This document shows, piece by piece, positions 2,527-62,260 of a stretch of 64,000 nucleotides of DNA; within the stretch, counting starts at the first letter, position 1, and the number at the start of each line of letters is the position of its first letter. Below the pieces are notes generated by a model. It worked only from the letters and a program-made list of their open reading frames with translations. It was not told the DNA's origin and ran no database searches. The stretch lies in assembly GCA_964348525.1 (NCBI GenBank), contig CAYGCY010000001.1, positions 21,873-85,872 of the forward strand. The letters run 5' to 3'. The DNA comes from an uncultured Candidatus Saccharibacteria bacterium. GTDB taxonomy: Bacteria > Patescibacteriota > Minisyncoccia > Phycocordibacterales > Zambryskibacteraceae. A program made the position numbers and the translations under genes.

Positions 2527-3129
2527 TTATGCAAGGAACTTCTTTTTGTACTTCTCCCAGAGTGGAAGAAATTTGTCTCTGAATACTGCGAGAATAAATT
2601 CATCGCAGTATCTGCCATTGCGGAACTGTTGTTCTTTCCTTCGACCTTCCACGATGTAGCCACACTTCTCAAGGCATCTTTTACTACGCCCATTGAAGTC
2701 GTAGACAATAGAGCTAATCTTTCGTAGGTTCAGAGTGTTGAAGGCGAATTCTAGCACGAGCATTTTAGCCTCTGTGCCATAGCCCTTGCTCCACAAATCC
2801 TTTCTGCCTATGAAAGAGCCAGTTGTGGCTGTTCCATGCTGGTGATTGATTTTGTGGAGAGACATCACTCCGATAAGCTCGTTTGTGTCTACCAGTACAA
2901 TTCCAAAAGAGATGTCAGTACTTTTTCTTTCGGAATGTGACTCGACCCACCTAAGCTCGTCCTCTGGCGACATCGGGGCGTTTACCTTCAGAAACTGGTG
3001 TACTTCTGGGTCATTGATCCAGATGGTAAGAAGTGGTACGTCTTCTTTGAGTATTGGGCGAAGATAAACCCTCTTACCCATTCGGAACACAATCCTCTGT
3101 GATTCTCGCTTTTCCTTCATCCGTTTCAT
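2527..3129 (-). CDS. GNAT family N-acetyltransferase (RimJ/RimL-like)
   Basis: acetyl-CoA binding motif region ...GVMSLHKINHQHGTATTGSFIGRKDLWSKGYGTEA... typical of GNAT fold. Confidence 0.7.
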   Translation of the reverse strand: MKRMKEKRESQRIVFRMGKRVYLRPILKEDVPLLTIWINDPEVHQFLKVNAPMSPEDELRWVESHSERKSTDISFGIVLVDTNELIGVMSLHKINHQHGTATTGSFIGRKDLWSKGYGTEAKMLVLEFAFNTLNLRKISSIVYDFNGRSKRCLEKCGYIVEGRRKEQQFRNGRYCDEFILAVFRDKFLPLWEKYKKKFLA

Positions 3130-3412
3130 ACTTGCCTCGTGTTAGGGAAGTGAAAAGAACTATGCTGAATGAAAAATCTCGGCTTTTCATTCAGCCGAGA
3201 TTTTTCTAGAAAGTGTTAGGGAGATTTATACGCTAAAACTATCACGGCTGAATAAAAATGGTTTCTTTTCTTTGGCAACAGAAATAAACCAACATATTTG
3301 TGTGGCCATGTAACCTCTATTAAGCTGTGTATGCGTATTAGGCATAATTACACCTTAGGTTATTTGCTTCTCGAAAGCAAGTCCCCAGATATAGATATAG
3401 ATAGTATAATTT

Positions 3413-3448
3413 CCATATTCTCTAATTCGTGAGAATTAGAGAATATGG
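3413..3448. promoter_or_regulatory. 36-bp perfect palindrome (CCATATTCTCTAATTCGnnnnCGAATTAGAGAATATGG) directly downstream of a TATAAT box (3405-3410); candidate operator for the ArsR-family gene
   Basis: inverted repeat read directly; a TATAAT hexamer lies 3 nt upstream; tandem GATATA repeats precede it. Confidence 0.5.
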
Positions 3449-3496
3449 TTGAAGATTGAATTAATAAAAGGTCAAATTTAATTATTAGTGGTAAAA

Positions 3497-3760
3497 ATGC
3501 AAATAAGAAATTTAGAAAGAATACTTAAAGCCTTAGCAAACAGTCGCAGGCTGGAAATCTTGAAGTTTCTGCGGGGCAAGACTGCAAATGTGGGGGAGAT
3601 AGCTGAAGCCATAAAACTTTCATTCAAATCAACGTCGAGGCATCTTTCTATTCTGGCCGGTGCCGATATTTTGGAGAAAGACTATGTCAGTAACCAAGTT
3701 TATTACCACCTTTCGCCGAGCCCTCATACTTTGGTAAAAAAGACACTATCTATTCTCTAA
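3497..3760 (+). CDS. ArsR/SmtB-family winged-helix transcriptional regulator (start could be GTG 3488)
   Basis: LKALANSRRLEILKFL...VGEIAEAIKLSFKSTSRHLSILAGADIL HTH pattern of ArsR family. Confidence 0.6.
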   Translation: MQIRNLERILKALANSRRLEILKFLRGKTANVGEIAEAIKLSFKSTSRHLSILAGADILEKDYVSNQVYYHLSPSPHTLVKKTLSIL

Positions 3761-3781
3761 TTCGTACGAATTAGAGAATAG
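3750..3781. repeat. Second copy of the same palindrome (CTATTCTCTAATTCGtacCGAATTAGAGAATAG) overlapping the ArsR stop codon
   Basis: arm sequence identical to 3413-3448 palindrome; overlaps stop TAA 3758-3760. Confidence 0.5.
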
Positions 3782-3853
3782 ATAGTGGTGGGGGAGGTGG
3801 GGTTTGTTTGGGCATAGTTTGGTGTTGGTTTTTTTGTTATTGTGTAGGTTAAT

Positions 3854-9037: not shown

Positions 9038-10204
9038 TTACAAAGTATCTTTGAGTCTGAGAGATAAAAATACTCCTATAAAAAGTATTCCCGCGAGGAC
9101 TACGAAAGAAGTGTATGGACCAAGAATATATATACTCGTTGCGCCTATCATTGGGGACACTAAATAGGAGACTGGTCTAGTAGCCCTGAATATCCCCACA
9201 GTACCAGTCTCTCTGCCTTTTATATGTTTGAAGAAATATGATTCTGTCGCTATTTCTACTGCGCTTGCCCCAGTTCTTGTCATAAATAGTGCTAATGCCC
9301 ATACCAATATAGAGCTTATGCTTATTACTGAAAGCATAGCGGTAGATATGGCTATTAGAAAAAAACCGATAGACATAATTTCTTTTTCACCAAACATTCT
9401 ATCTGCCAGCTCTCCTAAAGGTAGTTCAAAAAGGACAAATGGTAAAAGCATTACGGAGAATATGATACCTATCTCTGTCCAAGCGAACCCTATATTTTGA
9501 TGGAGATGTATGGGTACCCAGATAATCATCCACGCATAAAAAAATTGAAGTAAAAAATTTAAAAATATACCCATCCGCATGTCTTTGGTAACAGGCGCAT
9601 GATGAATGGGCAATAGGTGGTGGTCTGTCTTGTGACTAAAATGGGCTGGGATAGCAAGAAATAAAAAGAAAACAGAAAGCATATATATAAAGGCATACCC
9701 ATTTGATTCAAGTGCAAAACCCAAAAATAGTGGGGTTATCACAAAAGCCACGCTCCCTACTGTCAAAAATATTCCTCGTACTTCGCCAGTATTAGTTTCG
9801 TCTTTTATTTCTCTTTCAAGAATTATGTCTAGTACATAGAAAAGAAAAACAATAGCAGCTTGGTGCACGATGAATCCCAAGCCGACTAAGATTGGCGTCT
9901 CTGCGGACGACATTGTAGTTACTGCCAATATTTCAAGCACGGCTGTGGTTGTGAAGGCAGAGCGCAAGTTAATTTGCTTGAAAAAAGTTTCTGAAGACAA
10001 GAGTATTAATAGAGAAAGTATTGAACCCAAAGCGAAAAGTGTAGCCACTTCAAATTTGCCGAAAAAATTTTCAAGGTAGGAGGAATTTATATAAAGTATT
10101 AGGCAATAGTGAATTGCAGAAAAGAGCCCCGCCAAATATATGGGCAAAAATTTTCTGTTTCTTCCAATAAGACCTCCGTGGTGGAGTCTGCTTAAAACAC
10201 GCAT
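9038..10204 (-). CDS. MFS transporter
   Basis: ~12 TM helices, MFS-like organisation. Confidence 0.6.
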   Translation of the reverse strand: MRVLSRLHHGGLIGRNRKFLPIYLAGLFSAIHYCLILYINSSYLENFFGKFEVATLFALGSILSLLILLSSETFFKQINLRSAFTTTAVLEILAVTTMSSAETPILVGLGFIVHQAAIVFLFYVLDIILEREIKDETNTGEVRGIFLTVGSVAFVITPLFLGFALESNGYAFIYMLSVFFLFLAIPAHFSHKTDHHLLPIHHAPVTKDMRMGIFLNFLLQFFYAWMIIWVPIHLHQNIGFAWTEIGIIFSVMLLPFVLFELPLGELADRMFGEKEIMSIGFFLIAISTAMLSVISISSILVWALALFMTRTGASAVEIATESYFFKHIKGRETGTVGIFRATRPVSYLVSPMIGATSIYILGPYTSFVVLAGILFIGVFLSLRLKDTL

Positions 10205-10246
10205 ATACCAAGTGTACCAAAGGTTTTACCAATAAAGAGAGAATAT

Positions 10247-10308
10247 AAACCAGAAATGCCTCGTCACGGAGAGATAAACCTCGCTCCTAAACGAGGCATT
10301 TCTGGTTT
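10247..10308 (+). repeat. Hairpin element copy A (conserved loop CACGGAGAGATAAACCTCGCTCCTAA; 18-bp perfect stem)
   Basis: stem AAACCAGAAATGCCTCGT / ACGAGGCATTTCTGGTTT read directly; loop matches family consensus. Confidence 0.8.
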
Positions 10309-10325
10309 ATATTTATATTAAGACG

Positions 10326-10390
10326 AAAACTGAACTAGCCTGTCCGCGGAGCGCGGTATATCTCTCCAAAGGACAGGCTAGTTCAGTTTT
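10326..10390 (-). repeat. Hairpin element copy A' (opposite orientation; 20-bp perfect stem; loop GCGGAGCGCGGTATATCTCTCCAAA is the reverse complement of the core)
   Basis: stem AAAACTGAACTAGCCTGTCC / GGACAGGCTAGTTCAGTTTT; immediately downstream of rnj in transcript orientation. Confidence 0.8.
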
Positions 10391-10428
10391 CTAGAGGGGA
10401 GCTATGGGGATTTATCTGGTTGTCTTTA

Positions 10429-12339
10429 TTACACTCCAAGTGTTACAGGTATCACTATAGGAGTCTTGGCTGTTTTTTGGAATAAGAATTTTGATATATC
10501 TTCAGACACGGCATTTTTCACATAGTCGAAATTTATCGGATTCATTCCTTGAGTAGTTCCTTCTATGGAATGCCTGATAATCATGCGTGCCTGATTCAGA
10601 AGATCTTGAGACTCGCGCAGATACACAAACCCTCTGGAAATAATATCTGGTGATTTTTTTAATTTCCCTGTTTTTAGATTGATGGTGGCGACGATTACGA
10701 ATATTCCATCAGCAGCAAGGGCTTTTCTATCTCTCATTACCACTTCCTGTATGTCTCCTATGGAGAAGCCGTCTACTATCACATCTTCAGAAGGGGCCTT
10801 CTCTTTGAGTACTGTTATGCTTTTGCCCTCATCTCTTATTTCTATAATTGAACCATTGTCTGGTACCACGATATTTTCTTTAGGTGTGCCGTTTGATTCT
10901 GCGAGCTCTGCATGTTGTCTCAACATAAAGTGATTACCGTGAAGCGGAACAAAAAATCTGTGTTTTATTTGTTGCTGTATCCAGCGGAGTTCGTCTCGGT
11001 TGCCGTGCCCAGATGCATGAATGTCTGAATCTAGATAAGTGATTATTTTTGCTCCAGATCTGTACAAATTATCTTTCAATTTGGTAACTGCAAGATAATT
11101 TGTAGGAATAATAGACGAAGACAAAAGCACAGTGTCGGTTGGTTTTAGCTGGACCTGCTTGTGAGTTTTGTTTGCTATGCGCATAAGAGCAGCAAATTCT
11201 TCTCCTTGAGCGCCGGTAACGAGCATCACGATTCTATCTGGAGGGTAGTTGTCTATTTCCTCTATGCCAATAATGCTTTTTGTTTCTGTAAGCTTAAGGT
11301 GCCTGATGATTTCAAGGTTAGTTTTCATACTGCGTCCCTCCACTACTACTTTTTTGTTGTATTTTTCTGCAGCCGCAATAATGGCGATGATCCGCTCAAC
11401 TTGAGAAGCAAATGTGGCGATAATCATTCTTCCCGAAACCTCTTTGATGTATCTATCTATATTTTCTATAACCACTGATTCAGAAAGTGAAAACCCAGGT
11501 TTTTCTATAGAAGTAGAGTCCATGGTAAGAAGCAGGGCTTCCTTTCCTTTGAATTGCTTGTACTGCTCTACCTCTTCGTCTGTAGGAACTCCTTTTATGT
11601 TGTCTACACGCACATCTTCAATAAATATTATTTCTCCGTATGGAGTTTCTACAATGAGACCCATCGAATCGGGGATAGTGTGGGAAATAGGGAAGGTGCG
11701 TATTCTCAAAGATCCGCAAGAGATGGTTTCTTTTCCTTCTATTACCTTTATGTCGAGTTTTTGCAAATGAGGGAATTCTTCCTGTCTCTTTTCCACCATT
11801 ATTGCTCCGAATTGTCTTGTATATATAGGTGGGTAGCCTATGCGATCAATGATGTAGGGGATTCCGCCAATATGGTCTAAGTGCCCGTGAGTGATGAAGA
11901 GGGCTCGAATTTTTTCTTTTCTCTCTTCCAAATATCTTGTGTTAGGCAAAATGTAGTCTATGCCTGGAGTGTCCTGTTCTTTAAATTGAAATCCGGCATC
12001 CACCACAATGATGTCGTCTTTGTATTCAATGGCAGTCATATTTCTGCCTATTTCCTCCACTCCTCCAAGTGGGATGATACGTATTGCGTCTCCTATTTCA
12101 GGAATAGGTATTCTTTTTTCATCGATAGTTTGTCTTACAGAAAAACCTCCCGCGCCCGGTCCGGTTTTTCTCATTGGTCTTCTACCATTTCCTCTAAATG
12201 GGCGAGGACCGCCTCTTCCTCTTTTAGGTGCAGAGAAAGGCTTTCTGTCTCCAGATCTTTGAGGAGATGCATTTTGAGACGAGGAAAAAGATCTTCTAAA
12301 TGAAGAGTTTCTCGTTTCTCCTCCACTGTTTTGTTCCAT
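10429..12339 (-). CDS. rnj: Ribonuclease J (metallo-beta-lactamase/beta-CASP) with ~75-aa Arg/Gly/Ser-rich N-terminal extension
   Basis: HGHLDHIGG motif, beta-CASP region, RNase J C-terminal domain; disordered RG-rich N-terminus. Confidence 0.85.
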   Translation of the reverse strand: MEQNSGGETRNSSFRRSFSSSQNASPQRSGDRKPFSAPKRGRGGPRPFRGNGRRPMRKTGPGAGGFSVRQTIDEKRIPIPEIGDAIRIIPLGGVEEIGRNMTAIEYKDDIIVVDAGFQFKEQDTPGIDYILPNTRYLEERKEKIRALFITHGHLDHIGGIPYIIDRIGYPPIYTRQFGAIMVEKRQEEFPHLQKLDIKVIEGKETISCGSLRIRTFPISHTIPDSMGLIVETPYGEIIFIEDVRVDNIKGVPTDEEVEQYKQFKGKEALLLTMDSTSIEKPGFSLSESVVIENIDRYIKEVSGRMIIATFASQVERIIAIIAAAEKYNKKVVVEGRSMKTNLEIIRHLKLTETKSIIGIEEIDNYPPDRIVMLVTGAQGEEFAALMRIANKTHKQVQLKPTDTVLLSSSIIPTNYLAVTKLKDNLYRSGAKIITYLDSDIHASGHGNRDELRWIQQQIKHRFFVPLHGNHFMLRQHAELAESNGTPKENIVVPDNGSIIEIRDEGKSITVLKEKAPSEDVIVDGFSIGDIQEVVMRDRKALAADGIFVIVATINLKTGKLKKSPDIISRGFVYLRESQDLLNQARMIIRHSIEGTTQGMNPINFDYVKNAVSEDISKFLFQKTAKTPIVIPVTLGV

Positions 12340-14454: not shown

Positions 14455-14520
14455 AAAAACAAAGTCCCACAGCTCGTCATGGAAAGATATACCTTGCCTC
14501 CAAATGAACTACAAGACTTT
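14455..14520 (+). repeat. Probable degenerate copy of the hairpin element (core TCATGGAAAGATATACCTTGCCTCCAAATG, ~22/29 matches; weak stem)
   Basis: similarity to family core read by eye. Confidence 0.3.
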
Positions 14521-16084: not shown

Positions 16085-17731
<1,647 letters not shown>

Positions 17732-17765
17732 AAAACAGGTCGCGACTAGTGTCGCGACCTGTTTT
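17732..17765. terminator. Bidirectional terminator between groEL and the convergent GC-rich ORF
   Basis: AAAACAGGTCGCGAC-TAGT-GTCGCGACCTGTTTT. Confidence 0.75.
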
Positions 17766-18174
17766 TCATGAGCCATTTTGGGAGCGGATCGCTTACGTTT
17801 GGAGAAAGCCCAGCCTTGAGCCACGCGCCCTTCATTCCAGAACGGCGGAAATGCTTGTATATAAGCGCACAGAGCTCTGGGTTGGTTCGCCTTACGAAAG
17901 CACAAGATGGAATTTTCCCGTGTTCAAGCGCGAGCAACTGCATTGATTCAACAATCTGCGCGAGGGCTCTTTTTTTCTTCGCCCTTCGTCTTTTCAGGAA
18001 TTTCTGTGCTCCTTTCTCCGAGAGTTTTTCCCTAGCCGCAGCCTTCTTGAAGTCTCGTTTCTTGTGCGGAGTGATGGCACTCGCTTGCCCCCACGAGGTT
18101 ATCTGTGGGTCGTTGATTGCGCGCAGTACTTCTTTGCGGTCAATCGAGTCCGCATTGCTGTCGTCTGTGCCCAT
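17746..18174 (-). CDS. Hypothetical basic protein (142 aa), GC-elevated (~55%) ORFan
   Basis: long ORF convergent on groEL sharing its terminator; Lys/Arg-rich; no recognisable domain. Confidence 0.4.
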   Translation of the reverse strand: MGTDDSNADSIDRKEVLRAINDPQITSWGQASAITPHKKRDFKKAAAREKLSEKGAQKFLKRRRAKKKRALAQIVESMQLLALEHGKIPSCAFVRRTNPELCALIYKHFRRSGMKGAWLKAGLSPNVSDPLPKWLMKNRSRH

Positions 18175-25418: not shown

Positions 25419-26447
25419 ATGAGTATTAGAGTTGCCGTGAACGGCTGTGGTCGCATTGGCAGAACTTTTTTAAGATTGGCAATAAAGAATAGCGAAATAG
25501 ATCTCGTCGCTATCAATGATCTTGGAGATTTAGCAAATATCGCCTATCTCGTACAGCATGATTCTGTATACGGGAGCGCCCCTTTTTCAGTGGCCACAAA
25601 CGAAGCAACTAAAAAGCTTATTTTAGGTGGGAAAGAAATTTATTTTTTATCAGAAAAAGATCCGAAGCTATTGCCGTGGAAAGATTTGAATATAGATGTA
25701 GTAATAGAGTCGACTGGTCTGTTTACTTCTTATGAAAAATCAAAGGCCCATTTAGATGCTGGAGCGAAAAGGGTAGTGGTGACTGCTCCAATGAAAGATG
25801 AGCCCGCAGATATTGCTGGGGCAACGGTTCTTATGGGAGTGAATGAAGAGGAATTGCAAAAGTGTGTAATAACTTCGGATGCTTCTTGCACAACAAATGC
25901 TGCCTCGCCACTTATTGCCATTCTTGATGAGGGTTTGGGAATTGAAAAAGCAGTACTAAATACAGTGCACGCACATACTGCGAGCCAGCCGATAGTAGAT
26001 GCACCCAATAAAAAAGATTTTCGAGAAGGCAGAGCGGGTGCAAACAATATCGTGCCCACATCAACAGGCGCGGCGATTGCTGTCACAAAAGCATTTCCAA
26101 AATTGGAAGGCTTGTTTGACGGGATTGCCATACGCGTGCCAGTTATAGCGGGCTCTATAGTTGACGTTACTTTTGTTTCAAAGCGTTCGACAACGGTTGA
26201 GGAAGTGAACAATTTGCTTATAAGCGCGGCCAATGAAAAAAGATGGTCAAAGATTTTTTCTGTTACTGAAGAACCTCTTGTGTCTAGCGACATAGTAGGG
26301 TCTCCCTTTGGCTCAATAGCCGATTTAAAACTCACTCGTGTAGTGGGTGGCAACTTAGTGAAAGTAATGGCTTGGTATGATAATGAGATGGGGTATTGCT
26401 ACACTCTTTTAGAGCATGTGTTAAGGGCAGGAAATAATAAGTCATAA
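25419..26447 (+). CDS. gap: Glyceraldehyde-3-phosphate dehydrogenase, type I
   Basis: NGCGRIGR NAD-binding motif; catalytic ASCTTNAASP. Confidence 0.9.
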   Translation: MSIRVAVNGCGRIGRTFLRLAIKNSEIDLVAINDLGDLANIAYLVQHDSVYGSAPFSVATNEATKKLILGGKEIYFLSEKDPKLLPWKDLNIDVVIESTGLFTSYEKSKAHLDAGAKRVVVTAPMKDEPADIAGATVLMGVNEEELQKCVITSDASCTTNAASPLIAILDEGLGIEKAVLNTVHAHTASQPIVDAPNKKDFREGRAGANNIVPTSTGAAIAVTKAFPKLEGLFDGIAIRVPVIAGSIVDVTFVSKRSTTVEEVNNLLISAANEKRWSKIFSVTEEPLVSSDIVGSPFGSIADLKLTRVVGGNLVKVMAWYDNEMGYCYTLLEHVLRAGNNKS

Positions 26448-26459
26448 AATATAAATATC

Positions 26460-26930
26460 ATGCGTATTTTTATAGGTAGCGATCATGCAGGGCTTGCTCA
26501 CAAAGAAGAGATAGTGAAGTGCTTAAAAGGGGGTGGACATGAGGTGGTGGATTGTGGAGCATATGAATACGACGAAAGCGATGACTATCCAGATTTTGTT
26601 TCAAAAGTTGCTCGTGAAGTGTCTCAGAATCCCGCAAATTCCAAAGGAATAGTTTTAGGAGGTTCGGGGCAAGGGGAAGCGATGGTTGCCAACCGTTTTA
26701 AAAAAGTGCGCGCTGTCGTCTTTTACGGAAGCAAAGATACCATCCCTGAAGATCACAATGTTATCGAGCTTGCTCGCACGCATAATGACGCAAATGTTTT
26801 ATCTATAGGCGCAAGGTTTGTGACAACGGAAGAGGCAATAGACGCGGTTCAGAGATTTTTGGACACTCCGTTCAAGGGTGAGGAAAGACACGCAAGAAGG
26901 ATTGCTAAGATAGACCATCTACATGAGTGA
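26460..26930 (+). CDS. rpiB: Ribose-5-phosphate isomerase B
   Basis: RpiB/LacA family pattern MRIFIGSDHAG...GGSGQGEAMVANR. Confidence 0.85.
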   Translation: MRIFIGSDHAGLAHKEEIVKCLKGGGHEVVDCGAYEYDESDDYPDFVSKVAREVSQNPANSKGIVLGGSGQGEAMVANRFKKVRAVVFYGSKDTIPEDHNVIELARTHNDANVLSIGARFVTTEEAIDAVQRFLDTPFKGEERHARRIAKIDHLHE

Positions 26931-27627
26931 AATAATTCCAGCTATTTTAGAAAGAAGTTTTGAAGAAATAGAAAAAAAGGTCAGGATGATTTCTGAGGTG
27001 AGTCCTTTTGTACAGGTGGATATAGTTGATGGTGTGTATGGGAAAGAGAAAACATGGCCTTTTATTAAAGGTGAGGATGAAAATTTAAAAAAATTGGTTC
27101 AAGAAGACCAGTCACTTCCAGAATGGGAGTCGGTGTCATACGAATTTGATTTGATGGTAGATAACCCAAGGGCTTTAGCAGATACATTTGTTATGGCGGG
27201 CGCATCTAGAATTATTGTTCACTATTCGTCATTTAAAGATGAACAAGAGCGAGAAGTATTTCTCCGTGATTTTAAGAAAAAATATAATTTGCCAGAACCG
27301 CTTTCAGTCGAGCTTGGTTTAGCAATTGGCGCAGATATAAATATAGAAGAAATTTTAAAATACAAAGACACAATTGATTTGGTGCAGTTAATGGGGATTG
27401 ATCATGTAGGGCAACAGGGGGAAATATTTAATGAAAAAACAATAGCGCGGGTAGCAGAACTAAAAAAACTTTTGCCAGAAATGACTATCCAAATTGATGG
27501 GGGGATAAAAGAAGAAACTATAAAACCATTAGTAGAAGCTGGGGCGGGTAGGCTAATAATTGGCTCTACAATCTGGAACGATGAAGACCCTGTCGATGAG
27601 TATGAAAAGCTCTCAGAAATGGTCTAA
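26923..27627 (+). CDS. rpe: Ribulose-phosphate 3-epimerase family protein
   Basis: VDIVDG and C-terminal IDGGIK...AGAGRLIIGSTI resemble the Rpe barrel; start overlaps rpiB stop. Confidence 0.6.
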   Translation: MSEIIPAILERSFEEIEKKVRMISEVSPFVQVDIVDGVYGKEKTWPFIKGEDENLKKLVQEDQSLPEWESVSYEFDLMVDNPRALADTFVMAGASRIIVHYSSFKDEQEREVFLRDFKKKYNLPEPLSVELGLAIGADINIEEILKYKDTIDLVQLMGIDHVGQQGEIFNEKTIARVAELKKLLPEMTIQIDGGIKEETIKPLVEAGAGRLIIGSTIWNDEDPVDEYEKLSEMV

Positions 27628-27635
27628 AAATATCT

Positions 27636-27697
27636 AAAACAAAAGTACCTTATCACGGAGAGATATACCGCGCTCCTAAATGAGGTATTTTTGTTTT
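27636..27697 (+). repeat. Hairpin element copy B (loop TCACGGAGAGATATACCGCGCTCCTAA)
   Basis: stem AAAACAAAAGTACCTTAT / ATGAGGTATTTTTGTTTT (16/18 paired). Confidence 0.8.
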
Positions 27698-27806
27698 AGA
27701 TAGCATAAAAATGTCCCACTACAGGCAGTAAAACTTGTTTCTAAACGAGATGTTTTGGCCTTGTGTTAAATACAGCTCTAAAGAAGCTAATGATATAATT
27801 ATCCTA

Positions 27807-28697
27807 ATGGAGGCATCTTTTTTAGATGATAATAAAAAGTCAGAGCTCATGGTAAAAGCGAATGAAATTCGCGAATCTATTATTGAAATGCTTGTAGAGG
27901 CAAAATCTGGACACACCGCGGGGCCACTCGGTATGGCAGATATTTTTACCCTTCTTTATTTCCATGTTTTAAATCATGATCCCAAAGACCCGCATAATAA
28001 AAACCGCGACAGACTAGTGCTTTCAAATGGGCATATTTGTCCTGTGTACTATGCGACGCTCGCTCACGCTGGGTATTTTCCTGTGAAAGAGTTAAAAACA
28101 CTTCGTAAATTTGGCTCGCGCTTGCAGGGGCACCCACATCGCGACTTCTTGAATATTTTAGAAACATCTAGTGGTCCACTTGGTTCTGGATTAGCGCAAG
28201 CCGTTGGAATGGCGCTTGGTCTCCGAATGGACCCGCCTAAAGGTGAGACAAGTAAAAATCCCGCGAGAGTTTTTGCACTTATGTCAGATGGAGAGCAGGA
28301 GTGTGGTGCAACTTGGGAGGCAGGAATGCTTGCTGGGAAAGAAAAATTAAATAATTTGGTCGGGATTATTGATAGAAATTATATTCAAATAGACGGATTC
28401 ACGGAGGATGTAATGCCACTTGAATCACTTTCGGACAAATGGAAAGCATGGAACTGGCATGTTATTGAAGTAGATGGCCACAATTTTGAAGATGTAAATG
28501 ATGCAGTTGAGGAAGCCAAAACCATTTTTGCTAAACCCGTGATGATAATTGCGCATACAATTCCAGGAAAGGGAGTGAAGGAATTTGAAAAAGACTATCG
28601 TTGGCACGGGAAGCCCCCAACAATTGATGAGGGCAAAATGGCAATGAGAGAATTAAGGAGTTTAGGGGGGAAGATAACTGGGTATCACAATGACTAA
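27807..28697 (+). CDS. Transketolase, N-terminal (TPP-binding) subunit; start uncertain (ORF-track 27735)
   Basis: GHTAGPLGMAD and SNGH TPP-binding motifs; ends overlapping next gene. Confidence 0.8.
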   Translation: MEASFLDDNKKSELMVKANEIRESIIEMLVEAKSGHTAGPLGMADIFTLLYFHVLNHDPKDPHNKNRDRLVLSNGHICPVYYATLAHAGYFPVKELKTLRKFGSRLQGHPHRDFLNILETSSGPLGSGLAQAVGMALGLRMDPPKGETSKNPARVFALMSDGEQECGATWEAGMLAGKEKLNNLVGIIDRNYIQIDGFTEDVMPLESLSDKWKAWNWHVIEVDGHNFEDVNDAVEEAKTIFAKPVMIIAHTIPGKGVKEFEKDYRWHGKPPTIDEGKMAMRELRSLGGKITGYHND

Positions 28698-29289
28698 CGA
28701 AGACAATAAAAAAATAATAAATTTTCTTTTTGAAATGGGAACGATGCGCAAATTGCCTAGAATGCATAGGCAAAATCTTCTTACTGATGATATGTCAGAC
28801 AATATAGCTACACATTCTTATAGAGTTACTTTGATTGGTTGGTTTCTAGCTAAAATGGAAAAGGTTGAACCATACAAAGTTGTGATGATGTGTCTAGCGC
28901 ACGATATGAGTGAAGTAAGATCAGGGGATCACAATTGGGTTCACAAGCGGTATACAAAAATCTTTGAAGATGAGATAAAGAAGGAACAATTGGGGCAACT
29001 CCCATTTGAAGACCTATTTGAATTATCTAGTGAGTACGAAAAGAGAGAGAGCAAAGAGGCGATTGTAGCAAAGGATGCAGATTTATTAGACCAAATTTTT
29101 TTGTTAAGGGAATATGTTTGGCAGGGAAATAAGGAGGCACAAATTTGGTTAGACGGGAAAGGTGAAGATAAAATAAACAGACAATTTAAATCATTAAAAA
29201 CTGATAGTGCCAAAAAATTAGCTAAAATGGCAATGGAAACACCTCCATCAGATTGGTGGAATGACATTTTTACACACCAAAATAGATGA
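28690..29289 (+). CDS. HD-domain phosphohydrolase (YfbR-like), inserted between the two transketolase halves
   Basis: H...HD...D metal-binding pattern (HSYRV..., AHDMSEV..., D at 3' end); overlaps both neighbours by 4-8 nt. Confidence 0.7.
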   Translation: MTNEDNKKIINFLFEMGTMRKLPRMHRQNLLTDDMSDNIATHSYRVTLIGWFLAKMEKVEPYKVVMMCLAHDMSEVRSGDHNWVHKRYTKIFEDEIKKEQLGQLPFEDLFELSSEYEKRESKEAIVAKDADLLDQIFLLREYVWQGNKEAQIWLDGKGEDKINRQFKSLKTDSAKKLAKMAMETPPSDWWNDIFTHQNR

Positions 29290-30263
29290 TAAATAAAACC
29301 TTAAACAAAAAAATATTTGATAAGGATTGCGAACAGGTGCCAATAAGGCATGGTTTTGGTGAAGGGCTGGTTATTGCGGGGGAGAAAGATAAAAATGTAG
29401 TGGTTTTATGTGCAGACCTGACAGAATCAGCACAGGCCATCTTTTTTAAAGAAAAATTTCCTGAAAGGTTTATTGAAATTGGAGTGGCAGAACAAAATTT
29501 GGCGGGGGTCGCATCAGGAATTTCTGCAACAGGTAAAATCCCTTTTATTACTTCCTATGCAATGTTTTCTCCAGGGAGAAACTGGGAACAAATTCGCACC
29601 ACAATTGCATATAACAATAGACCAGTAAAAATTGCAGGCTCTCATACCGGAGTGTCAGTAGGCCCCGATGGGGGGACACATCAAGCGCTAGAGGACATTG
29701 CCATAATGCGCACGATGCCAAGAATGGTCGTTATCTCACCATGTGATGCGATTGAAGCAAAAAAAGCCACTGTGGCAATAGCCAAAACAAACACTCCTGT
29801 TTATATTCGCCTTGCTCGTGAAAAAACTCCTGTGATGACTACAGAAGAAACTCCTTTTGAAATAGGCAAAGCACAAATTTTTTATGAAAGCGCAAAGCCG
29901 GAGGTCGCGCTAGTGGCAACTGGTGCATTGGTTCACAAGGCGTTACAAGTTGCTAAAAAACTTGAAAATGAAATTGGAGTAATTGTTGTAAATCTTGCAA
30001 CAATAAAACCGCTAGACGGTAAAACTATTTTAGATGTTGCCAAAAGAGCAGGAAGAGTGGTCACGGTGGAAGAACATCAAATAATGGGTGGAATGGGTTC
30101 GGCTGTATCTGAGTTTTTGTCGGCTAATTATCCAGTACCAATAGAGTTTGTGGGCATAAAAGACCAATTTGGCCAATCTGGTACTCCAGACGAGCTGATT
30201 GAACACTATGGGCTTGGAGTAGCTGGTATAGAAAAAGCAGTTAGAAATATTTTGAAAAAATAA
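29286..30263 (+). CDS. Transketolase, C-terminal (pyrimidine-binding plus C-terminal) subunit
   Basis: GVAEQNLAGVASG..., GSHTGVSVGPDGGTHQ motifs. Confidence 0.85.
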   Translation: MINKTLNKKIFDKDCEQVPIRHGFGEGLVIAGEKDKNVVVLCADLTESAQAIFFKEKFPERFIEIGVAEQNLAGVASGISATGKIPFITSYAMFSPGRNWEQIRTTIAYNNRPVKIAGSHTGVSVGPDGGTHQALEDIAIMRTMPRMVVISPCDAIEAKKATVAIAKTNTPVYIRLAREKTPVMTTEETPFEIGKAQIFYESAKPEVALVATGALVHKALQVAKKLENEIGVIVVNLATIKPLDGKTILDVAKRAGRVVTVEEHQIMGGMGSAVSEFLSANYPVPIEFVGIKDQFGQSGTPDELIEHYGLGVAGIEKAVRNILKK

Positions 30264-30667
30264 TGAAATTTAATCTTGACAAGATGTTTGGTTTTGTAGA
30301 CCCAGTAGATGAAGTGTCTATGAACCCTGTCGAGGAAATGAAAAAGGCCCAGAGTGTGGCCAAAACTGAAAGGGAAGCCATATCCAATTTGCAGCGCGCG
30401 ATAAATGAAATTAATTCAGCAATTAATTCACTCAAAGACAGATTGGAAAAAGAACATACAAGTTTGGGTAAAGAACAGCAAGAAGAGATAGAGGAGAGAA
30501 TAGAATTTTTGTTTGGCGAAAGGGAGAGGCTATCTTCCTTACTTCTTGATAAAACTTTTGAAGCGGAAGAAGCCGAGGAATATGTGGCAAAGGTGAATAC
30601 GGAAGTAGATAAAATAAGGAATAAGATTTTTACTGATAAACTTGAGCGTGATTTGCCTTTGCAATAA
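30263..30667 (+). CDS. Hypothetical coiled-coil protein
   Basis: E/K-rich heptad-like sequence, no recognisable domain. Confidence 0.4.
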   Translation: MKFNLDKMFGFVDPVDEVSMNPVEEMKKAQSVAKTEREAISNLQRAINEINSAINSLKDRLEKEHTSLGKEQQEEIEERIEFLFGERERLSSLLLDKTFEAEEAEEYVAKVNTEVDKIRNKIFTDKLERDLPLQ

Positions 30668-30668
30668 G

Positions 30669-30884
30669 ATGAAGTTAGGAATTTATAGGCACACAAAAAG
30701 TGGCAGAGAATACCGAGTGCTGTTTGTTGCTAAACATTCAGAAACACTTGAGGATTTTGTCATTTATGAAGCTCAATATGAAAACGACATGTCAAAATAT
30801 TGGGCTAGACCTGTAGCGATGTTTTTGGAGCAAATAGAGATAGACGGTACCCTGAAACCAAGATTTGAATTTTTGAGAGATTAA
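30669..30884 (+). CDS. DUF1653 family protein (ORF-track start 30642)
   Basis: YRHTKSGREYRVLFVAKHSETLEDFVIYEA...WARPVAMFLE resembles the DUF1653 pattern. Confidence 0.55.
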   Translation: MKLGIYRHTKSGREYRVLFVAKHSETLEDFVIYEAQYENDMSKYWARPVAMFLEQIEIDGTLKPRFEFLRD

Positions 30885-31885
30885 GCAATCTTACTTACAG
30901 AATAATCAGGTCTTTTTTTAAGTTCTTCTTGAATTTGGCTTTGTGAGAGGAGCCCTTCTCTTGCGCCTATGTATCTGCAGACACTCATTCCGTTCACGGC
31001 GCCCCAAGATAGTGCTTCGGGTAAATTCTTCTCCAAAACTAGTGCGGAGGTACAGGCGGAAGCAAAAGCGTCCCCCGCGCCAGTTCTTTCAAAGGCTTCC
31101 TCCTCGGGATTAAATTCGGGAGCAAAATATATGCCGGTCTTATCAGCGCCATATGCTCCTTTTGGCCCAAGGGTAATTACGACTGATTGAGGCCCTAGCA
31201 TGTGAAGACCCAGAAGTAATTCTTTTATGTCTGTACCAGATGGTTTATCCAAAATTTTTTCTGCCTCCTCGTTATTGCAAAAGAAAATTTCTGTACGAGT
31301 GTAAATATCTTTCAATTTCTCTACCCCCAAACTCATTTGAAATGTTCCGGGCTGAAATGCTAACTTTACATTTGGGTGCGAGCTTAAATATTGTGCAATC
31401 TCTTCGTGATATTTTTCTGTATTAGGTCCGAGAGAAGATAAATATATCCACTTCGGCTCGTTTATATTTGGCAATGAGTAAATAAATGGCTCATGTTTTA
31501 CCAAAATAGTGCGGTCTTTGTCATACCAAAGTACATAGTGATAGTTTGTTTTTTTGTCGCGCTCTATTTTTATAAGTTTTATATCTACCCTTTCTTTTTC
31601 CAAGGCTTTTAAACATTCTCTACCATTTTCATCTCCTCCAATATTTGCGATAAGGGAAGATTTTAGGCTAAGGCGGGACATGGCAACACTAGCATTAGAA
31701 GAATTACCAACGGCTGGTACTATTTTTGCTGACTCGTAAGGAATTTTATCTCCAAAGCGCATTGAAATAGTGCAGTTTTCATCGTTTAAATCACAGGTCA
31801 CTCTCGCGTCTTTCAGGCGAATAAATGCGTCCATTGTGATATCTCCTATACAGATTACATCTAAAGATTTCTTAAAAAATGACAT
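30881..31885 (-). CDS. PfkB-family carbohydrate kinase (ribokinase-like); the ORF-track 502-aa call is over-extended antisense through fba
   Basis: N-terminal ICIGDITMD and C-terminal TGAGDAFASA motifs; ATG at 31885. Confidence 0.75.
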   Translation of the reverse strand: MSFFKKSLDVICIGDITMDAFIRLKDARVTCDLNDENCTISMRFGDKIPYESAKIVPAVGNSSNASVAMSRLSLKSSLIANIGGDENGRECLKALEKERVDIKLIKIERDKKTNYHYVLWYDKDRTILVKHEPFIYSLPNINEPKWIYLSSLGPNTEKYHEEIAQYLSSHPNVKLAFQPGTFQMSLGVEKLKDIYTRTEIFFCNNEEAEKILDKPSGTDIKELLLGLHMLGPQSVVITLGPKGAYGADKTGIYFAPEFNPEEEAFERTGAGDAFASACTSALVLEKNLPEALSWGAVNGMSVCRYIGAREGLLSQSQIQEELKKRPDYSVSKIA

Positions 31886-31919
31886 ATAGAGAATTATAGC
31901 AGAGTGATACAATGGGCAT

Positions 31920-34395: not shown

Positions 34396-34435
34396 CGCTT
34401 GCCAATAGCACTATTTGAGATATAATCTCTAGCCT

Positions 34436-35092
34436 ATGTTGAGTCTTTCGGTTAAAACTAGAAAAACAGAGGAAAATGTTGATGCCTTGAGAAAAAGCGG
34501 TTTCATCCCTGCAGTTTTTTATGGCAAAAAGACGGAATCAACTCCAATCTCTATCTCTCTTGTGGATTTCAAAAAAGCTTATAAACAAGCAGGGGAATCA
34601 GGTGTAGTGACCCTAAAAGGTGATATCGAGGAAGTAGACACTCTTATCAACGATATAGATTTTGACCCAGTTACTGGAGTACCTCGCCACGCAGATTTTT
34701 ATGTATTCGACAAAATGAAAAAAATGGAAGTGGATGTCCCTGTGGAATTTGTAGGTGAAGCGCCAGCTATAAAAGCGGGTCTTCTCGTTGTGAAAGTTAT
34801 GCACGATATAAAAGTGGAAGCCCTTCCTACAGCTATACCACACTCTATAGAGGTTGATATTTCAAAACTAGAAAAAGATGGGGATGTAGTTTCTGTAAAA
34901 GATTTGTCTGTTCCAGCAGGAGTTTCCATAGTAGACAATCCGGAAGACACAGTAGCGTCGGTGCAGACACCTAAAGAAGAAAAAGAAGAAGTGCCTGTAG
35001 ACCTATCCGCCATAGAGGTAGAAAAGAAAGGCAAGGAGGCTAAAGAAGGAGAAGAAACGATGCCTCCAGAAGGAGAGCCTAAAGCAGAATAA
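34436..35092 (+). CDS. rplY: 50S ribosomal protein L25/general stress protein Ctc
   Basis: L25 N-terminal beta-barrel pattern plus acidic C-terminal extension. Confidence 0.75.
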   Translation: MLSLSVKTRKTEENVDALRKSGFIPAVFYGKKTESTPISISLVDFKKAYKQAGESGVVTLKGDIEEVDTLINDIDFDPVTGVPRHADFYVFDKMKKMEVDVPVEFVGEAPAIKAGLLVVKVMHDIKVEALPTAIPHSIEVDISKLEKDGDVVSVKDLSVPAGVSIVDNPEDTVASVQTPKEEKEEVPVDLSAIEVEKKGKEAKEGEETMPPEGEPKAE

Positions 35093-36507: not shown

Positions 36508-36534
36508 CAAAAATTGAAGAACTAAACAATATAT

Positions 36535-38481: not shown

Positions 38482-38551
38482 AAAATGAGTCGGATATTTT
38501 TCTTTTGGAGAGATATACCGCACTCCGCAGAAAAACACCCCACTCATTTTA
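38482..38551 (+). repeat. Hairpin element copy D, variant loop (TTGGAGAGATATACCGCACTCCGCAGAAAAA)
   Basis: stem AAAATGAGT / ACTCATTTT; core GGAGAGATATACCGC-CTCC conserved. Confidence 0.7.
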
Positions 38552-47785: not shown

Positions 47786-47811
47786 TTTTGTAAAAAAGCA
47801 ACGTAGCCTAT

Positions 47812-47873
47812 CTAAAGCAAAAGCCTCATTACGGAGAGATAAACCTCGTTCCTAAACGAGGCATTTCTGCTTT
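47812..47873 (+). repeat. Hairpin element copy E (loop TACGGAGAGATAAACCTCGTTCCTAAAC)
   Basis: stem AAGCAAAAGCCTC / GAGGCATTTCTGCTT, imperfect. Confidence 0.7.
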
Positions 47874-47904
47874 GTGTAAATAATAAAAATATATTTTGTT
47901 ACAA

Positions 47905-54254: not shown

Positions 54255-54479
54255 ATGGTAGTAAGGATGAGACATAATCGAGGGCAAACAGGAAGCCGTC
54301 GATCACATCACAAACTAAAGAATCCGGCTTTGGCAAAGGACCAAGACGGAGCTGTAACTTTGCGCCACAGAATGAATCCAGCCACAGGCAAATATAAAGG
54401 CAAGGTGGTTGTGGATATGGCTGCAAAAAAGGCAGCAAAGCAAGCTAGAAAGAAAGCTTCCTCTGAAGCACAGAAATAA
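54255..54479 (+). CDS. rpmF: 50S ribosomal protein L32 with Lys-rich C-terminal extension
   Basis: RRSHHKL and ...LRHRMNPATGKYKGKVV resemble bL32. Confidence 0.65.
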   Translation: MVVRMRHNRGQTGSRRSHHKLKNPALAKDQDGAVTLRHRMNPATGKYKGKVVVDMAAKKAAKQARKKASSEAQK

Positions 54480-54544
54480 ACACAGCGGGATATTTTACTC
54501 AGGAGTGCGATTTGTCTCTCCGTGACAAGATATCCCGCTGTGTT
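54478..54544 (-). repeat. Diverged hairpin element copy H, minus orientation (reverse complement of loop is CTTGTCACGGAGAGACAAATCGCACTCCTGAGTAAA)
   Basis: 16-bp perfect stem AAACACAGCGGGATAT / ATATCCCGCTGTGTTT. Confidence 0.6.
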
Positions 54545-54585
54545 TATGTTTTATGTTAATATAGGGATGTAATAGTTCTTTCACG

Positions 54586-61678: not shown

Positions 61679-61695
61679 GTATCTCTTGTAGAAGG

Positions 61696-61757
61696 ATTGG
61701 GAAGGCATTGTCACGGAGAGATATGCCGCGCTCCTAAACAATTCCCTCCCAGTCCTT
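61696..61757 (+). repeat. Hairpin element copy F (loop TCACGGAGAGATATGCCGCGCTCCTAAAC), overlapping the rnr 5' end on the opposite strand
   Basis: stem GGATTGGGAAGGCATTG / CAATTCCCTCCCAGTCC (14/17). Confidence 0.7.
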
Positions 61758-61817
61758 TCCGGTTAAAACTTTAACATATCTTGCAGTAGTTCTTAAATTT
61801 GGTACTATAGCGCGACA

Positions 61818-62111: not shown

Positions 62112-62116
62112 ACATA

Positions 62117-62180
62117 GCAAAATAAGGAGCCTTGTCACGGAGAGATATACCTCGCTCCTAAACAAGGCCCCTTATTTTGC
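62117..62180 (+). repeat. Hairpin element copy G (loop TCACGGAGAGATATACCTCGCTCCTAAA)
   Basis: stem GCAAAATAAGGAGCCTTG / CAAGGCCCCTTATTTTGC (17/18). Confidence 0.8.
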
Positions 62181-62260
62181 TTTTACTGATATAAGGGAGG
62201 GGTATTTCATTGTGCTAAAATGTTCTTGGTAGTTATTTAGTATTTAATTAAACGAAAGAA

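Follow-up and report, generated by a model that had tools for sequence, protein, structure and literature searches.

Rickettsia palindromic elements (RPEs; Ogata et al. 2000) are reported to be short palindromic repeats with no transposase of their own, dispersed in a reduced genome and found in intergenic DNA and also in-frame inside conserved protein-coding genes at permissive sites; many copies are decayed, and how they are mobilized is not known. REP/BIME (REPIN) elements, which go with RAYT transposases, and ERIC/IRU elements are extragenic palindromes just downstream of genes and inside operons. They are transcribed as stable hairpins that can stabilize upstream mRNA or attenuate transcription, sometimes occur as inverted pairs, and break short-read assemblies. 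Intrinsic (Rho-independent) terminators, including bidirectional ones, have an A-tract, a GC-containing stem and a T-tract placed right after stop codons, often between convergent genes. A variable stem with a conserved unpaired sequence is also the recognition logic of hairpin sites used by single-strand DNA enzymes (HUH Rep origins of geminiviruses and circoviruses, the dso of RCR plasmids, and integron attC sites, which sit at the 3' ends of ORFs in a fixed orientation). Lastly, quasi-palindrome template-switch mutagenesis (Ripley; Lovett laboratory) is a mutational process, not an element, that offers a selection-free way for two arms to stay or become perfectly complementary and to extend into flanking DNA.

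We analyzed a 64,000-nt stretch (hereafter the window) of an uncultured Candidatus Saccharibacteria bacterium (GenBank assembly GCA_964348525.1, contig CAYGCY010000001.1, positions 21,873 to 85,872), which holds nine clear copies and one relic of a 60-75-nt hairpin with a near-invariant 20-nt centre, GGAGAGATAWACCKCRCTCC. Like RPEs, the family lies in intergenic DNA and, in other lineages, in-frame inside conserved protein genes, without coding capacity of its own. It differs from RPEs in its unrelated host phylum, in being about half the size (58-76 nt against about 100-150 nt), in having a conserved centre and variable arms where RPE families are conserved along their length, and in its spread across a whole phylum with several sister cores; the resemblance claimed is one of behaviour, not of membership. 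Unlike REP elements, whose stems are conserved and whose loops are unimportant, the copies have no GTAG/GTGG head (arms begin with varied A-rich sequence), their stems vary while the centre is conserved, and no RAYT gene was seen in the 64 kb of this genome or in loci of 21 kb or less from others; REPs are not known to sit in-frame in ORFs. Nor do the copies have the family-wide terminal inverted repeats and fixed-length target-site duplication of a MITE: terminal arm sequences differ between subfamilies, and comparisons of filled and empty sites gave no consistent direct repeat, a AGCTAGCT repeat in locus L037 being itself palindromic and therefore ambiguous.

As in intrinsic terminators, most copies have a GC-containing proximal stem followed by T-rich 3' arm or tail sequence, mirrored by a 5' A-tract, and they are placed right after stop codons, often between convergent genes. 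However, the apical part is a structured, sequence-conserved module of 28 nt rather than a loop of 3-8 nt, a simple terminator scan calls none of the three elements in 26000-40000, and copies occur within operons (rpe-tkt, rpsP-khpA) and inside ORFs. The arm ends lack the R''/R' boxes (RYYYAAC / GTTRRRY) of attC, and the flanking genes are syntenic housekeeping genes conserved in relatives, not cassettes. The loop AGATAWACC does not fit the HUH nonanucleotide NANTATTAC. No Rep or IntI gene was seen. Template switching offers a way for arms to extend into flanking DNA, as seen at the uvrC site, but would not explain the conserved centre or its dispersal.

Hairpin copies in the window. Loci from other genomes and contigs are labelled L001 and upward; L065-L074 come from the ERR30942xx, SRR22746xxx and SRR2238xxxx runs. 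CM, covariance model; z, folding energy relative to shuffled sequence.
Position (strand)	Type	Core and arms	Gene context	CM (bits)	Fold z	Comparison with other loci
10241..10314 (+)	Copy, subtype A	TCAC / core GGAGAGATAAACCTCGCTCC / TAAA; perfect 24-bp arms	Antisense to the upstream rnj gene; inverted partner of the next copy	73.4	-11.3 (-44.7 kcal/mol)	Orthologous copy in L052, a 99% identical strain
10325..10391 (-)	Copy, subtype B	TTT / core GGAGAGATATACCGCGCTCC / GC; 21-bp arms unrelated to subtype A	Sense, 39 nt after the RNase J stop codon	50	-8.5	
14461..14520 (+)	Decayed relic of a subtype A copy	GGAAAGATATACCTTGCCTCC, 1-nt insertion; arms mostly unpaired; retains the CGTCAT...AAATGAAC flanks		12.4 (E about 1.1)	-1.85	
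27631..27702 (+)	Copy, subtype A		Sense, starts 4 nt after the rpe stop codon, between rpe and the transketolase gene; relatives have these genes overlapping or 17 nt apart	68.8	-9.05	Site empty in L055 and L057; 96.7% identical over 60 nt to a copy at an unrelated locus, L003
36530..36600 (+)	Hybrid, broken copy	5' proximal arm of the A consensus; 3' proximal arm (TAAACGAAAC) matches the orthologous copy in L059; only the outer 9 bp pair	After the SLT-domain gene	41.1	-1.2	L059:2665 has an intact hairpin at the same site
38482..38550 (+)	Copy, subtype B	Arms homologous to L047, a paralogue elsewhere in a close strain, with compensatory differences	Sense, 17 nt after the prfA stop codon	39.4	-4.3	Site empty in L061 and L054-L058; L059 has a subtype A copy with different arms at the same site
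47809..47878 (+)	Recombinant copy	5' arm of one element joined to the 3' arm of a second	After a plain terminator downstream of gyrB	45.3		The 98% identical contig L045 has two tandem elements here; the window differs by a 63-nt deletion whose ends lie in the two cores
54476..54547 (-)	Copy with variant core	GGAGAGACAAATCGCACTCC; 24-bp arms	Antisense to the flanking + strand genes, upstream of nusB	54.7	-8.9	
61691..61758 (+)	Copy, subtype A	Core GGAGAGATATGCCGCGCTCC	In the divergent rnr/rpsP spacer	59.6		Absent from strains 95-96% identical; L066-L069 lack it, L065 and L070-L072 have it
62116..62181 (+)	Copy, subtype A		Sense, 5 nt after the rpsP stop codon, between rpsP and the KhpA-like gene	72.2	-8.2	Retained with changed arms in 95-96% strains, with mutated cores in L066 and L069; public contigs L065 and L072 end inside its core

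The preliminary description of this repeat was correct as an observation: the nine copies it listed all exist at the coordinates and strands it gave. A search for GGAGAGATAWACC with up to 1 mismatch gave 9 hits against 0.12 expected from shuffles, and 0 of 100 shuffles reached 9; the tenth copy, on the minus strand at 54478-54544, is the one with the variant core. A covariance model built from 33 distinct copies recovered the nine at 39-73 bits (E 3e-8 to 7.5e-18), whereas the possible degenerate copy at 14455-14520 is at best a decayed relic. Eight of the ten fold far better than shuffles (z from -3.8 to -11.3); 36535-36600 and 14455-14520 do not. Covariation in the outer stem was strong, with 96.3% of cells paired, changes on both sides of all 14 pairs, and a covariation score of 0.663 against 0.18 for shuffles and at most 0.18 for slid controls.

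Some details of that description need correction. The invariant part is a 20-nt core rather than the 28-nt loop, and the flanking 3-4-nt internal-loop strands are lineage- or subtype-specific (TCAC/TAAA, TTT/GC, and CTCC/TGCA elsewhere). The stems do not differ completely between copies: those at 10268, 27657, 36555 and 47833, plus L045, L053 and L003, share an arm consensus (T)ATMTAAAGCAAAAKGCCTCATCAC...TAAATGAGGCMTTTTGCTTTAKAT, and 38507 shares its arms with L047. The inner GGAG/CUCC pairing never varies, so that covariation neither supports nor refutes it. The described overlap with the rnr start is probably an ORF-calling effect; 95-96% identical strains have rnr called 20 codons shorter and lack this copy altogether. 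The gene context was confirmed by Pfam, with rpe, RF1, S16, RNase J and an SLT-domain protein upstream in sense, and gyrB about 300 nt upstream of 47833.

The interpretation offered with that description is only partly supported. The hairpins are indeed a structured repeat family with a conserved centre and compensatory arm variation, are not plain intrinsic terminators, and match no hammerhead, twister or other Rfam model; of the roles suggested, a REP/MITE-like repeat is the one favoured by the evidence. The family is, however, not genome-specific, confinement to the window having been named beforehand as grounds for rejection: there were 16 hairpin-embedded hits in 8 Patescibacteria MAGs (Parcubacteria, Saccharibacteria, Minisyncoccia, Adlerbacteria) and 14 hairpin-embedded hits in metagenome contigs (14 contigs). 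The inference that a conserved loop with covarying stems signifies a selected RNA function is not backed by the turnover, hybrid and relic copies, operon insertions and coding insertions detailed below, and nothing supports a ribozyme.

No known family accounts for the repeat. A scan of the window with Rfam models (among them hammerhead, twister, twister-sister, pistol, hatchet, hairpin and HDV-like ribozymes, riboswitches and known bacterial motifs) at gathering thresholds found only 3 tRNAs; a permissive scan (E<=10) of 10200-10440 gave only spurious miRNA-hairpin hits far below threshold, and scans of six loci, including loci with other copies, gave none. Three scans of viral contigs and a scan of a phage collection returned 0 hits, and the two plasmid hits are coding-sequence chance matches without hairpins. 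Literature searches for the core string and for terminators, repeats or palindromic elements of Patescibacteria found nothing relevant.

The family behaves like mobile or selfish DNA. Whole hairpins, arms included, recur at unrelated loci, as between window 27637-27696 and L003, which have no flanking homology. There were 0 covariance-model hits in 98 kb of syntenic DNA from 79-83% relatives, and syntenic sites in 79-85% relatives are empty; L059, by contrast, has copies at both orthologous sites, one with unrelated arms. Strains at 95-96% identity, besides lacking 61715 and carrying mutated cores at the 62139 site, have an extra copy after khpA. Two window copies, 47833 and 36555, are recombinant or broken hybrids.

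In other lineages the same unit lies inside Pfam domains of uvrC, a MutY-like (HhH-GPD) glycosylase, MPG and a GDE-type glycosidase (GDE_C), with domain sequence on both sides. All 5 such DNA hits are stop-free and preserve the frame, against 1/3 expected (p=0.004). Of 121 UvrC homologues, 49 carry inserts, of at least 7 classes, and their insert-free nearest neighbours are 88-98% identical. DNA at the uvrC site shows this core (core-1; P0123 is another core-1 copy in uvrC) in sense, a sister 26-nt core (core-2, GGAGAGATGAACGGGAGCCCTACTCC) in sense and antisense, and a third centre. The MutY-like glycosylase has a second hotspot with the same cores and insert-free close homologues, whereas 120 RF1 homologues have no insert.

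The explanation we favour, with moderate confidence, is that these are copies of a previously undescribed, non-autonomous, mobile palindromic repeat family that behaves like RPEs and like REP/ERIC-type repeats. What the analysis establishes directly is the architecture (a 58-76-nt near-perfect palindrome with an A-rich 5' arm, a T-rich 3' arm, a small pyrimidine/A-C internal loop and the asymmetric 20-nt centre), the occurrence across Patescibacteria, the paralogous hairpins, the gain and loss between strains 95-96% identical and absence from syntenic sites in sister lineages, the recombination of copies through their cores and their decay, and the in-frame insertions into permissive linkers hit many times independently. 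The rest is inferred. The conserved apical module would be the part required for propagation, as a recognition or processing site for an unidentified enzyme, perhaps host-encoded and conserved in the phylum, that acts on a folded single strand; this would explain why the module stays constant while the arms drift. The arms would stay complementary because the hairpin is needed for propagation, although palindrome-perfecting template switching or arm-to-arm gene conversion may also contribute. In this view the window copies survive where they do least harm, in the short spacers just behind stop codons and mostly in sense, and any terminator or RNA-stability effect is secondary: as a by-product, their RNA would form a very stable A-tract/stem/U-tract hairpin that probably acts as a leaky bidirectional terminator or a 3'-exonuclease barrier.

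Some observations fit this explanation less well. No transposase, recombinase or reverse transcriptase was found next to any copy, and no clean target-site duplication could be defined, so that mobility is inferred from distribution and not from a mechanism. About 12 of 13 informative intergenic copies are in the sense orientation of the upstream gene (p=0.003), as are all clear core-1 copies in ORFs, which a purely DNA-level parasite does not predict unless insertion or selection is strand-specific. The orthologous copies L001 and L005 (about 85% nt identity) keep the core at 19 of 20 positions while the arms changed by about 4 compensated pairs, and host-level selection for the structure would produce the same pattern. 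Core invariance is also partly an ascertainment effect of the exact-pattern scans.

If this reading is right, Patescibacteria, which have some of the smallest and most streamlined bacterial genomes, carry an active, phylum-wide family of palindromic insertions that would be a second, independent example of the RPE phenomenon. The repeats punctuate operons, fragment metagenome assemblies and repeatedly add 20-30-residue segments to conserved repair enzymes, affecting gene calling, protein-family alignments and MAG assembly. They also point to an unidentified hairpin-recognizing activity that keeps a 20-nt sequence constant across deeply diverged lineages. A more far-reaching possibility, unlikely on present evidence but not excluded, is that the apical module, GGAGAGAT...CTCC with its sister cores, is the recognition site of an unrecognized hairpin-specific nucleic-acid enzyme conserved across Patescibacteria that copies or inserts small palindromes strand-specifically. 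This would make the family a new class of mobile element with structure-guided targeting, actively remodelling protein linkers (40% of UvrC homologues carry inserts) and gene 3' ends in these minimal genomes. It would be of high interest if true.

Of the alternatives, the one that survives best, although we consider it unlikely, is a host-selected RNA module: a specialized intrinsic terminator or 3'-end stabilizer whose apical loop would bind a conserved Patescibacterial RNA-binding protein or RNA polymerase, with new copies arising by duplication and kept for function. Supporting this possibility are the sense bias, hairpin starts 1-40 nt after stop codons of many housekeeping genes, the A-tract/stem/T-tract architecture, conservation of the core across classes of the phylum, and the compensated arm changes at the L001/L005 site. 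On the other hand, copies come and go between 95-96% strains and cores decay in some of them, sister lineages have none in the 98 kb of syntenic DNA, copies split operons whose genes overlap in relatives, some copies are antisense or lie in divergent spacers (10268, 54521, 61715 and L010), and the same unit lies inside coding domains, where a terminator would be harmful. Plain terminator hairpins without the core are, moreover, common in the same window. Sense-strand arms carry 8 G.U against 23 A.C mismatches (p=0.011), the opposite of what RNA selection predicts, but the events are not phylogenetically independent and this is suggestive only.

More doubtful is the possibility that only the roughly 30-nt centre is mobile and inserts into the loops or centres of pre-existing hairpins, such as terminators and small coding hairpins, or that the arms are built afterwards from flanking DNA by template switching and so are locus-derived. 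In its favour, the outer arm bases at the uvrC hotspot coincide with native codons (GAG CTG GCT, for ELA), with their inverted copy on the 3' side, in L037, L076 and L078, although the rest of the arms differ; arms look like ordinary terminator stems, and the same site is hit by different centres. However, empty sites in close relatives show no pre-existing hairpin (the prfA-rpsB spacer in L061 and L054-L057, and rpe-tkt in L055 and L057), and identical or near-identical arms at unrelated loci (L003/27657, L047/38507, the subtype A consensus) indicate that the arms travel with the centre.

An RNA-level processed element (a small self-cleaving ribozyme, or an intron-like or translationally bypassed insert that is removed from or skipped in the mRNA) is very unlikely: although a conserved centre with a covarying helix is the usual look of small ribozymes, Patescibacteria are rich in introns, and hairpin inserts in ORFs recall mitochondrial 'byp' elements, there was no match to any Rfam ribozyme or intron model even at E up to 10, inspection showed no conserved junction or pseudoknot potential between the loop and the internal loop, the internal loop differs between lineages, the frame preservation and lack of stop codons in all 5 ORF-embedded DNA hits are needed only if these are translated, and the core subtype found in ORFs is open in all three sense frames.

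A link to group II introns was also considered, because the core occurs in Acidobacterial intron IEP ORFs. There the 20-mer encodes W-E-R-Y-T-A-L-L of the conserved C-terminal motif TW.R(F/Y)..LL.RHPLP, and a Methylocystis homologue has the motif with different nucleotides and the same length, without an insertion; we therefore rejected the link as coincidence multiplied by intron copy number, although this does not explain the short flanking stems there. Resemblances to the 11-nt tetraloop-receptor, K-turn, BHB-intron, CsrA-site, dif/Xer-site, SECIS, T7 gene-10 ribosome-binding site (RBS) and 16S rRNA 530 loop each fit only one subtype or failed on inspection, so all were dropped. As to whether copy orientation reflects replication, the + strand looks leading throughout the window, and the copy at 10367(-) follows its gene rather than replication, the only such case.

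Two long hairpins in opposite orientation lie at the locus first singled out, and GGAGAGATAWACC with up to 1 mismatch occurs 9 times in the window, against 0.12 expected from dinucleotide shuffles; a tenth copy has a variant core. Every copy has the same anatomy, namely an A-rich 5' arm and a T-rich 3' arm of 18-24 nt, a small internal loop (TCAC/TAAA in 'subtype A', TTT/GC in 'subtype B'), and a 4-bp GGAG/CUCC helix closing a 12-nt loop. Eight of the ten fold with z-scores from -3.8 to -11.3; two do not. In a gapless alignment of 33 distinct copies from the window and elsewhere, the 14 outer-stem pairs were 96% paired and all showed changes on both sides, giving a covariation score of 0.663 against 0.18 for shuffles and at most 0.18 for slid controls. 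The inner helix never varies, so that its pairing is inferred rather than supported by covariation. A covariance model recovered the nine good copies at 39-73 bits and the relic at 12 bits, and otherwise found only ordinary short hairpins without the core. The repeat family set out in the preliminary description is thus real, and not ordinary.

Searches with Rfam models found nothing but tRNAs at gathering thresholds and only noise at E up to 10, and no paper in the literature searched contains the core string or describes such repeats in Patescibacteria. The possibility that the repeat is specific to this genome was not borne out. An exact-pattern scan of one genome per species returned 31 loci, of which sixteen are hairpin-embedded copies in 8 Patescibacteria MAGs: Parcubacteria Gr01-1014_56, three Saccharibacteria, one Minisyncoccia, two Adlerbacteria and REEB120. 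The rest are scattered single hits without hairpins, about as many as expected by chance, and one further group is a family of hits in Acidobacterial group II introns. A metagenome scan added 14 more hairpin copies, whereas viral contigs, phage genomes and plasmids had none. Outside the window's lineage the dominant form is g-CTCC-GGAGAGATATACCKCACTCC-TGCA-c ('type C'), again lying between an A-tract arm and a T-tract arm. Comparison of prfA homologues places the window organism in Minisyncoccia/Paceibacterota.

The Acidobacterial hits lie at the 3' end of a group II intron reverse-transcriptase ORF, with group-II-D1D4-6 detected upstream by Rfam. The exact 20-mer there encodes W-E-R-Y-T-A-L-L, a variant of a conserved C-terminal IEP motif, TW.R(F/Y)..LL.RHPLP, and a Methylocystis homologue has the motif at the same length with different nucleotides. 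We judged the match to be a coding coincidence, one chance match multiplied by the copy number of the intron and its homologues, although this does not account for the short, different stems that flank it in three of the four variants (9 bp in locus L025). Relatedly, an IS630-like insertion, with DDE transposase ORFs on the minus strand, interrupts the intron copy in L025, and locus L009 has a different 1.6-kb insertion in another copy.

Whole hairpins, and not only the centre, are copied. Thus, locus L003, which shares no gene with the window, carries a hairpin 96.7% identical over 60 nt to window 27637-27696; the copies at window 38507 and locus L047 share arms, with compensated differences; and the window copies 10268, 27657, 36555 and 47833 share an arm consensus with those of loci L045, L053 and L003. 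On the other hand, syntenic loci spanning rpe to gyrB from relatives with 79-83% RF1 identity contained no copy in 98 kb, and there rpe and tkt overlap or lie 17 nt apart, where the window has a 70-nt hairpin. Of two closer relatives, L061 (85%) has the prfA stop codon directly followed by the rpsB promoter region, while L059 (86%) has copies at both orthologous sites: the copy after the SLT gene shares the 3' proximal arm with the window's broken copy, and the copy after prfA has the same core but unrelated arms and a different internal loop. The spacer between the SLT-domain gene and rpmE is itself 330-930 nt long, GC-rich and very strongly structured in relatives (MFE -130 to -370 kcal/mol); it has no Rfam match at E up to 0.01, and may be an undescribed or highly divergent structured RNA.

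Turnover was also seen among strains. Contigs 95-96% identical to the window lack the 61715 copy, keep the 62139 copy with altered arms (and with core substitutions in two strains), and carry an extra copy after khpA, where the window has a plain terminator. Two public contigs end inside the 62139 core. Between strains with 95-96% identical genes, whole intergenic spacers are replaced rather than point-mutated, including the rpsP promoter region and the khpA-trmD spacer, which is 274 nt in the window and 117 nt in strain contig L066. The longest rnr ORF in the window (671 aa, TTG start) is probably over-extended, because relatives are called at 651 aa, so that the 61715 element is intergenic. 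Recombination is indicated by a 98% identical contig that has two tandem elements where the window has one imperfect hairpin, the difference being a 63-nt deletion between the two cores. Retention occurs as well: at the orthologous loci L001 and L005 (about 85% nt identity) both have the element after the same sigma70_r4/HARE-HTH gene, with the core matching at 19 of 20 positions and the arms differing by about four compensated pairs. As L001 comes from a MAG labelled Parcubacteria (Gr01-1014_56) and L005 from a Saccharibacteria MAG, one of the taxonomic labels may be loose.

The genes upstream of copies are diverse housekeeping genes: rpe, RF1, S16, RNase J and an SLT protein in the window, and Map, TruB, RecR, EF-P, exonuclease III, FKBP, SMC and a PD-(D/E)XK nuclease elsewhere. 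With crude gene calls, about 12 of 13 copies that abut a single gene end are in sense (p=0.003), and five lie between convergent genes; in the window, 10268, 54521 and 61715 are not in sense. GC skew suggests that the + strand is leading throughout the window, and copy 10367(-), a single case, follows its gene rather than replication. In the arms, the sense strand carries 8 G.U and 23 A.C mismatches against 629 Watson-Crick pairs (p=0.011, events not phylogenetically independent), which gives no support for RNA-type selection on the mRNA strand; if anything, the other strand carries the wobble pairs.

The decisive observation is that copies lie inside genes. Five type C copies found by the DNA scans are inside long ORFs, in-frame and in sense: in L037, within uvrC between the GIY-YIG domain and the UVR/RNase H domains; in L004, inside the domain of an HhH-GPD (MutY-like) glycosylase; in L038, in methylpurine glycosylase; and in L040 and L049, at different sites in two homologous GDE_C glycosidases, so that L040 shows the empty site for the insertion in L049. 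All five preserve the frame, where one third would be expected (p=0.004). The type C module is stop-free in all three sense frames, whereas the window's subtype A has TAA in one or two frames.

To examine the uvrC site further, we aligned 120 Patescibacterial UvrC homologues. The linker between 'VRGKEL' and 'TFGPFPHG' is about 10 residues long in 72 proteins and carries +15 to +60 residues in 49 (49 of 121 homologues), the inserts falling into at least 7 recurrent peptide classes (RDIPHS, RDEREPYS, LGSSQR, AAGxxGD, RAPVHLS, GDKRHPF and others). DNA from four further loci at this site showed this core in sense; a sister 26-nt core, GGAGAGATGAACGGGAGCCCTACTCC ('core-2'), in sense and in antisense; a third centre with perfect 19-bp arms; and a decayed antisense relic. 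Core-2 is flanked by the same CTCC...T(C/A)CG internal loop, was found only inside ORFs in the DNA examined, and is absent from the window and from viral contigs. The classes are scattered over the UvrC similarity structure, and insert-bearing proteins have insert-free nearest neighbours at 88-98% identity, which means many independent gains or losses at one permissive site. The MutY-like glycosylase has a second hotspot, before 'LPGVGPYTA', carrying core-1 in sense (LRSGEIYRTP, 3 proteins), core-2 in sense (GEMNGSPTP, 10 proteins), core-2 in antisense (GVGLPFISP or RAPVHLS, 6 proteins) and other classes seen at the protein level (FCASDDEGKNF, EKVLGSPVS, RGYPQNFS). In contrast, 120 RF1 homologues carry none of these peptides. 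At the uvrC site the outer arm bases coincide with native codons, with their inverted copy on the other side, suggesting that the arms can grow or be repaired by palindrome-perfecting template switching.

Positions behind genes and within operons, strain-level turnover, hybrid and decayed copies, paralogous whole hairpins and in-frame insertion hotspots together fit a selfish, mobile palindromic element best, the closest analogues being Rickettsia palindromic elements and REP/ERIC repeats. Palindromic selfish repeats that also colonise coding sequence are already known; what is new is this phylum-wide family. Its odd feature is the reversed conservation pattern, in which a constant centre is combined with drifting but complementary arms. 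That is the logic of enzymes that recognise a folded single strand by its unpaired part, from which we infer that the apical module is the propagation signal, although no candidate gene for such an enzyme was seen in the DNA examined. Some of the apparent invariance of the core comes from the use of exact-pattern scans, and within the window and among strains the core does vary. The anatomy, distribution, turnover and coding insertions are direct results of the comparisons; the propagation signal, its enzyme and the template switching are deductions from them, as is any effect at the RNA level. A leaky bidirectional terminator or an exonuclease barrier would be a plausible by-product of the A-tract/stem/U-tract shape, but cannot be the reason for copies inside ORFs. 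The interpretation offered in the preliminary description is only partly supported: its REP/MITE-like option is close to the reading favored here. The most exciting readings, a ribozyme or a dedicated regulatory RNA, are not supported. A host-selected RNA role remains possible for some copies, because of the sense bias and the L001/L005 retention, but seems unlikely overall. A ribozyme or a spliced or bypassed element is very unlikely.

Coordinates of the repeat copies and of other features encountered
Sequence	Coordinates (strand)	Feature
Window	10247-10390	Two long hairpins in opposite orientation
Window	54478-54544 (-)	Tenth copy, variant core
Window	36535-36600	Copy not folding with z-scores in the range of the other eight
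Window	14455-14520	'Degenerate' copy (relic), likewise outside that range
L037	2090-2165	uvrC linker
L075	920-1010	uvrC linker
L076, L077, L078		uvrC linker
L075; L078	957 (+); 1423 (-)	Core-2
Proteins	P0121-P0240	UvrC homologues, linker hotspot
Proteins	P0241-P0360	MutY-like glycosylase, site before LPGVGPYTA
L025; L016; L039; L029	4735-4775; 1773-1815; 1160-1205; 3030-3075	Exact 20-mer in Acidobacterial group II intron IEP ORFs
L025	2350-3546	IS630-like insertion
L054; L055; L059; window	9387-9720; 9049-9710; 2700-3560; about 36600-37200	Spacer between the SLT-domain gene and rpmE
Window	3412-3449 and 3747-3784	Two hairpins sharing an arm
Window	36611-36658, 36805-36844, 49518-49558, 17731-17766, 47919-47942, 59005-59035	Long perfect hairpins
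Window versus L067	61658-61812 versus 2118-2200	Replaced intergenic spacer
Window versus L066	62592-62865 versus 1216-1332	Replaced intergenic spacer
Window	59726-61741 (-)	Longest rnr ORF
L001 and L005	6669-7712 and 1756-2829	Locus shared by two MAGs
L055	12915-13175	Small free-standing GIY-YIG ORF

Other palindromes are present in the window. Two hairpins near a tRNA gene share the arm ATTCTCTAATTCG...CGAATTAGAGAAT and represent a different small palindromic repeat family. There are also many unusually long (14-21 bp), perfect hairpins with 3-6-nt loops, some of them nearly loop-free palindromes; these are longer than ordinary terminators, so that the genome seems generally rich in perfected palindromes. 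Lastly, the small free-standing GIY-YIG ORF (86 aa) in the Minisyncoccia relative L055 lies next to a tRNA gene and is absent at the corresponding place in the other relatives.
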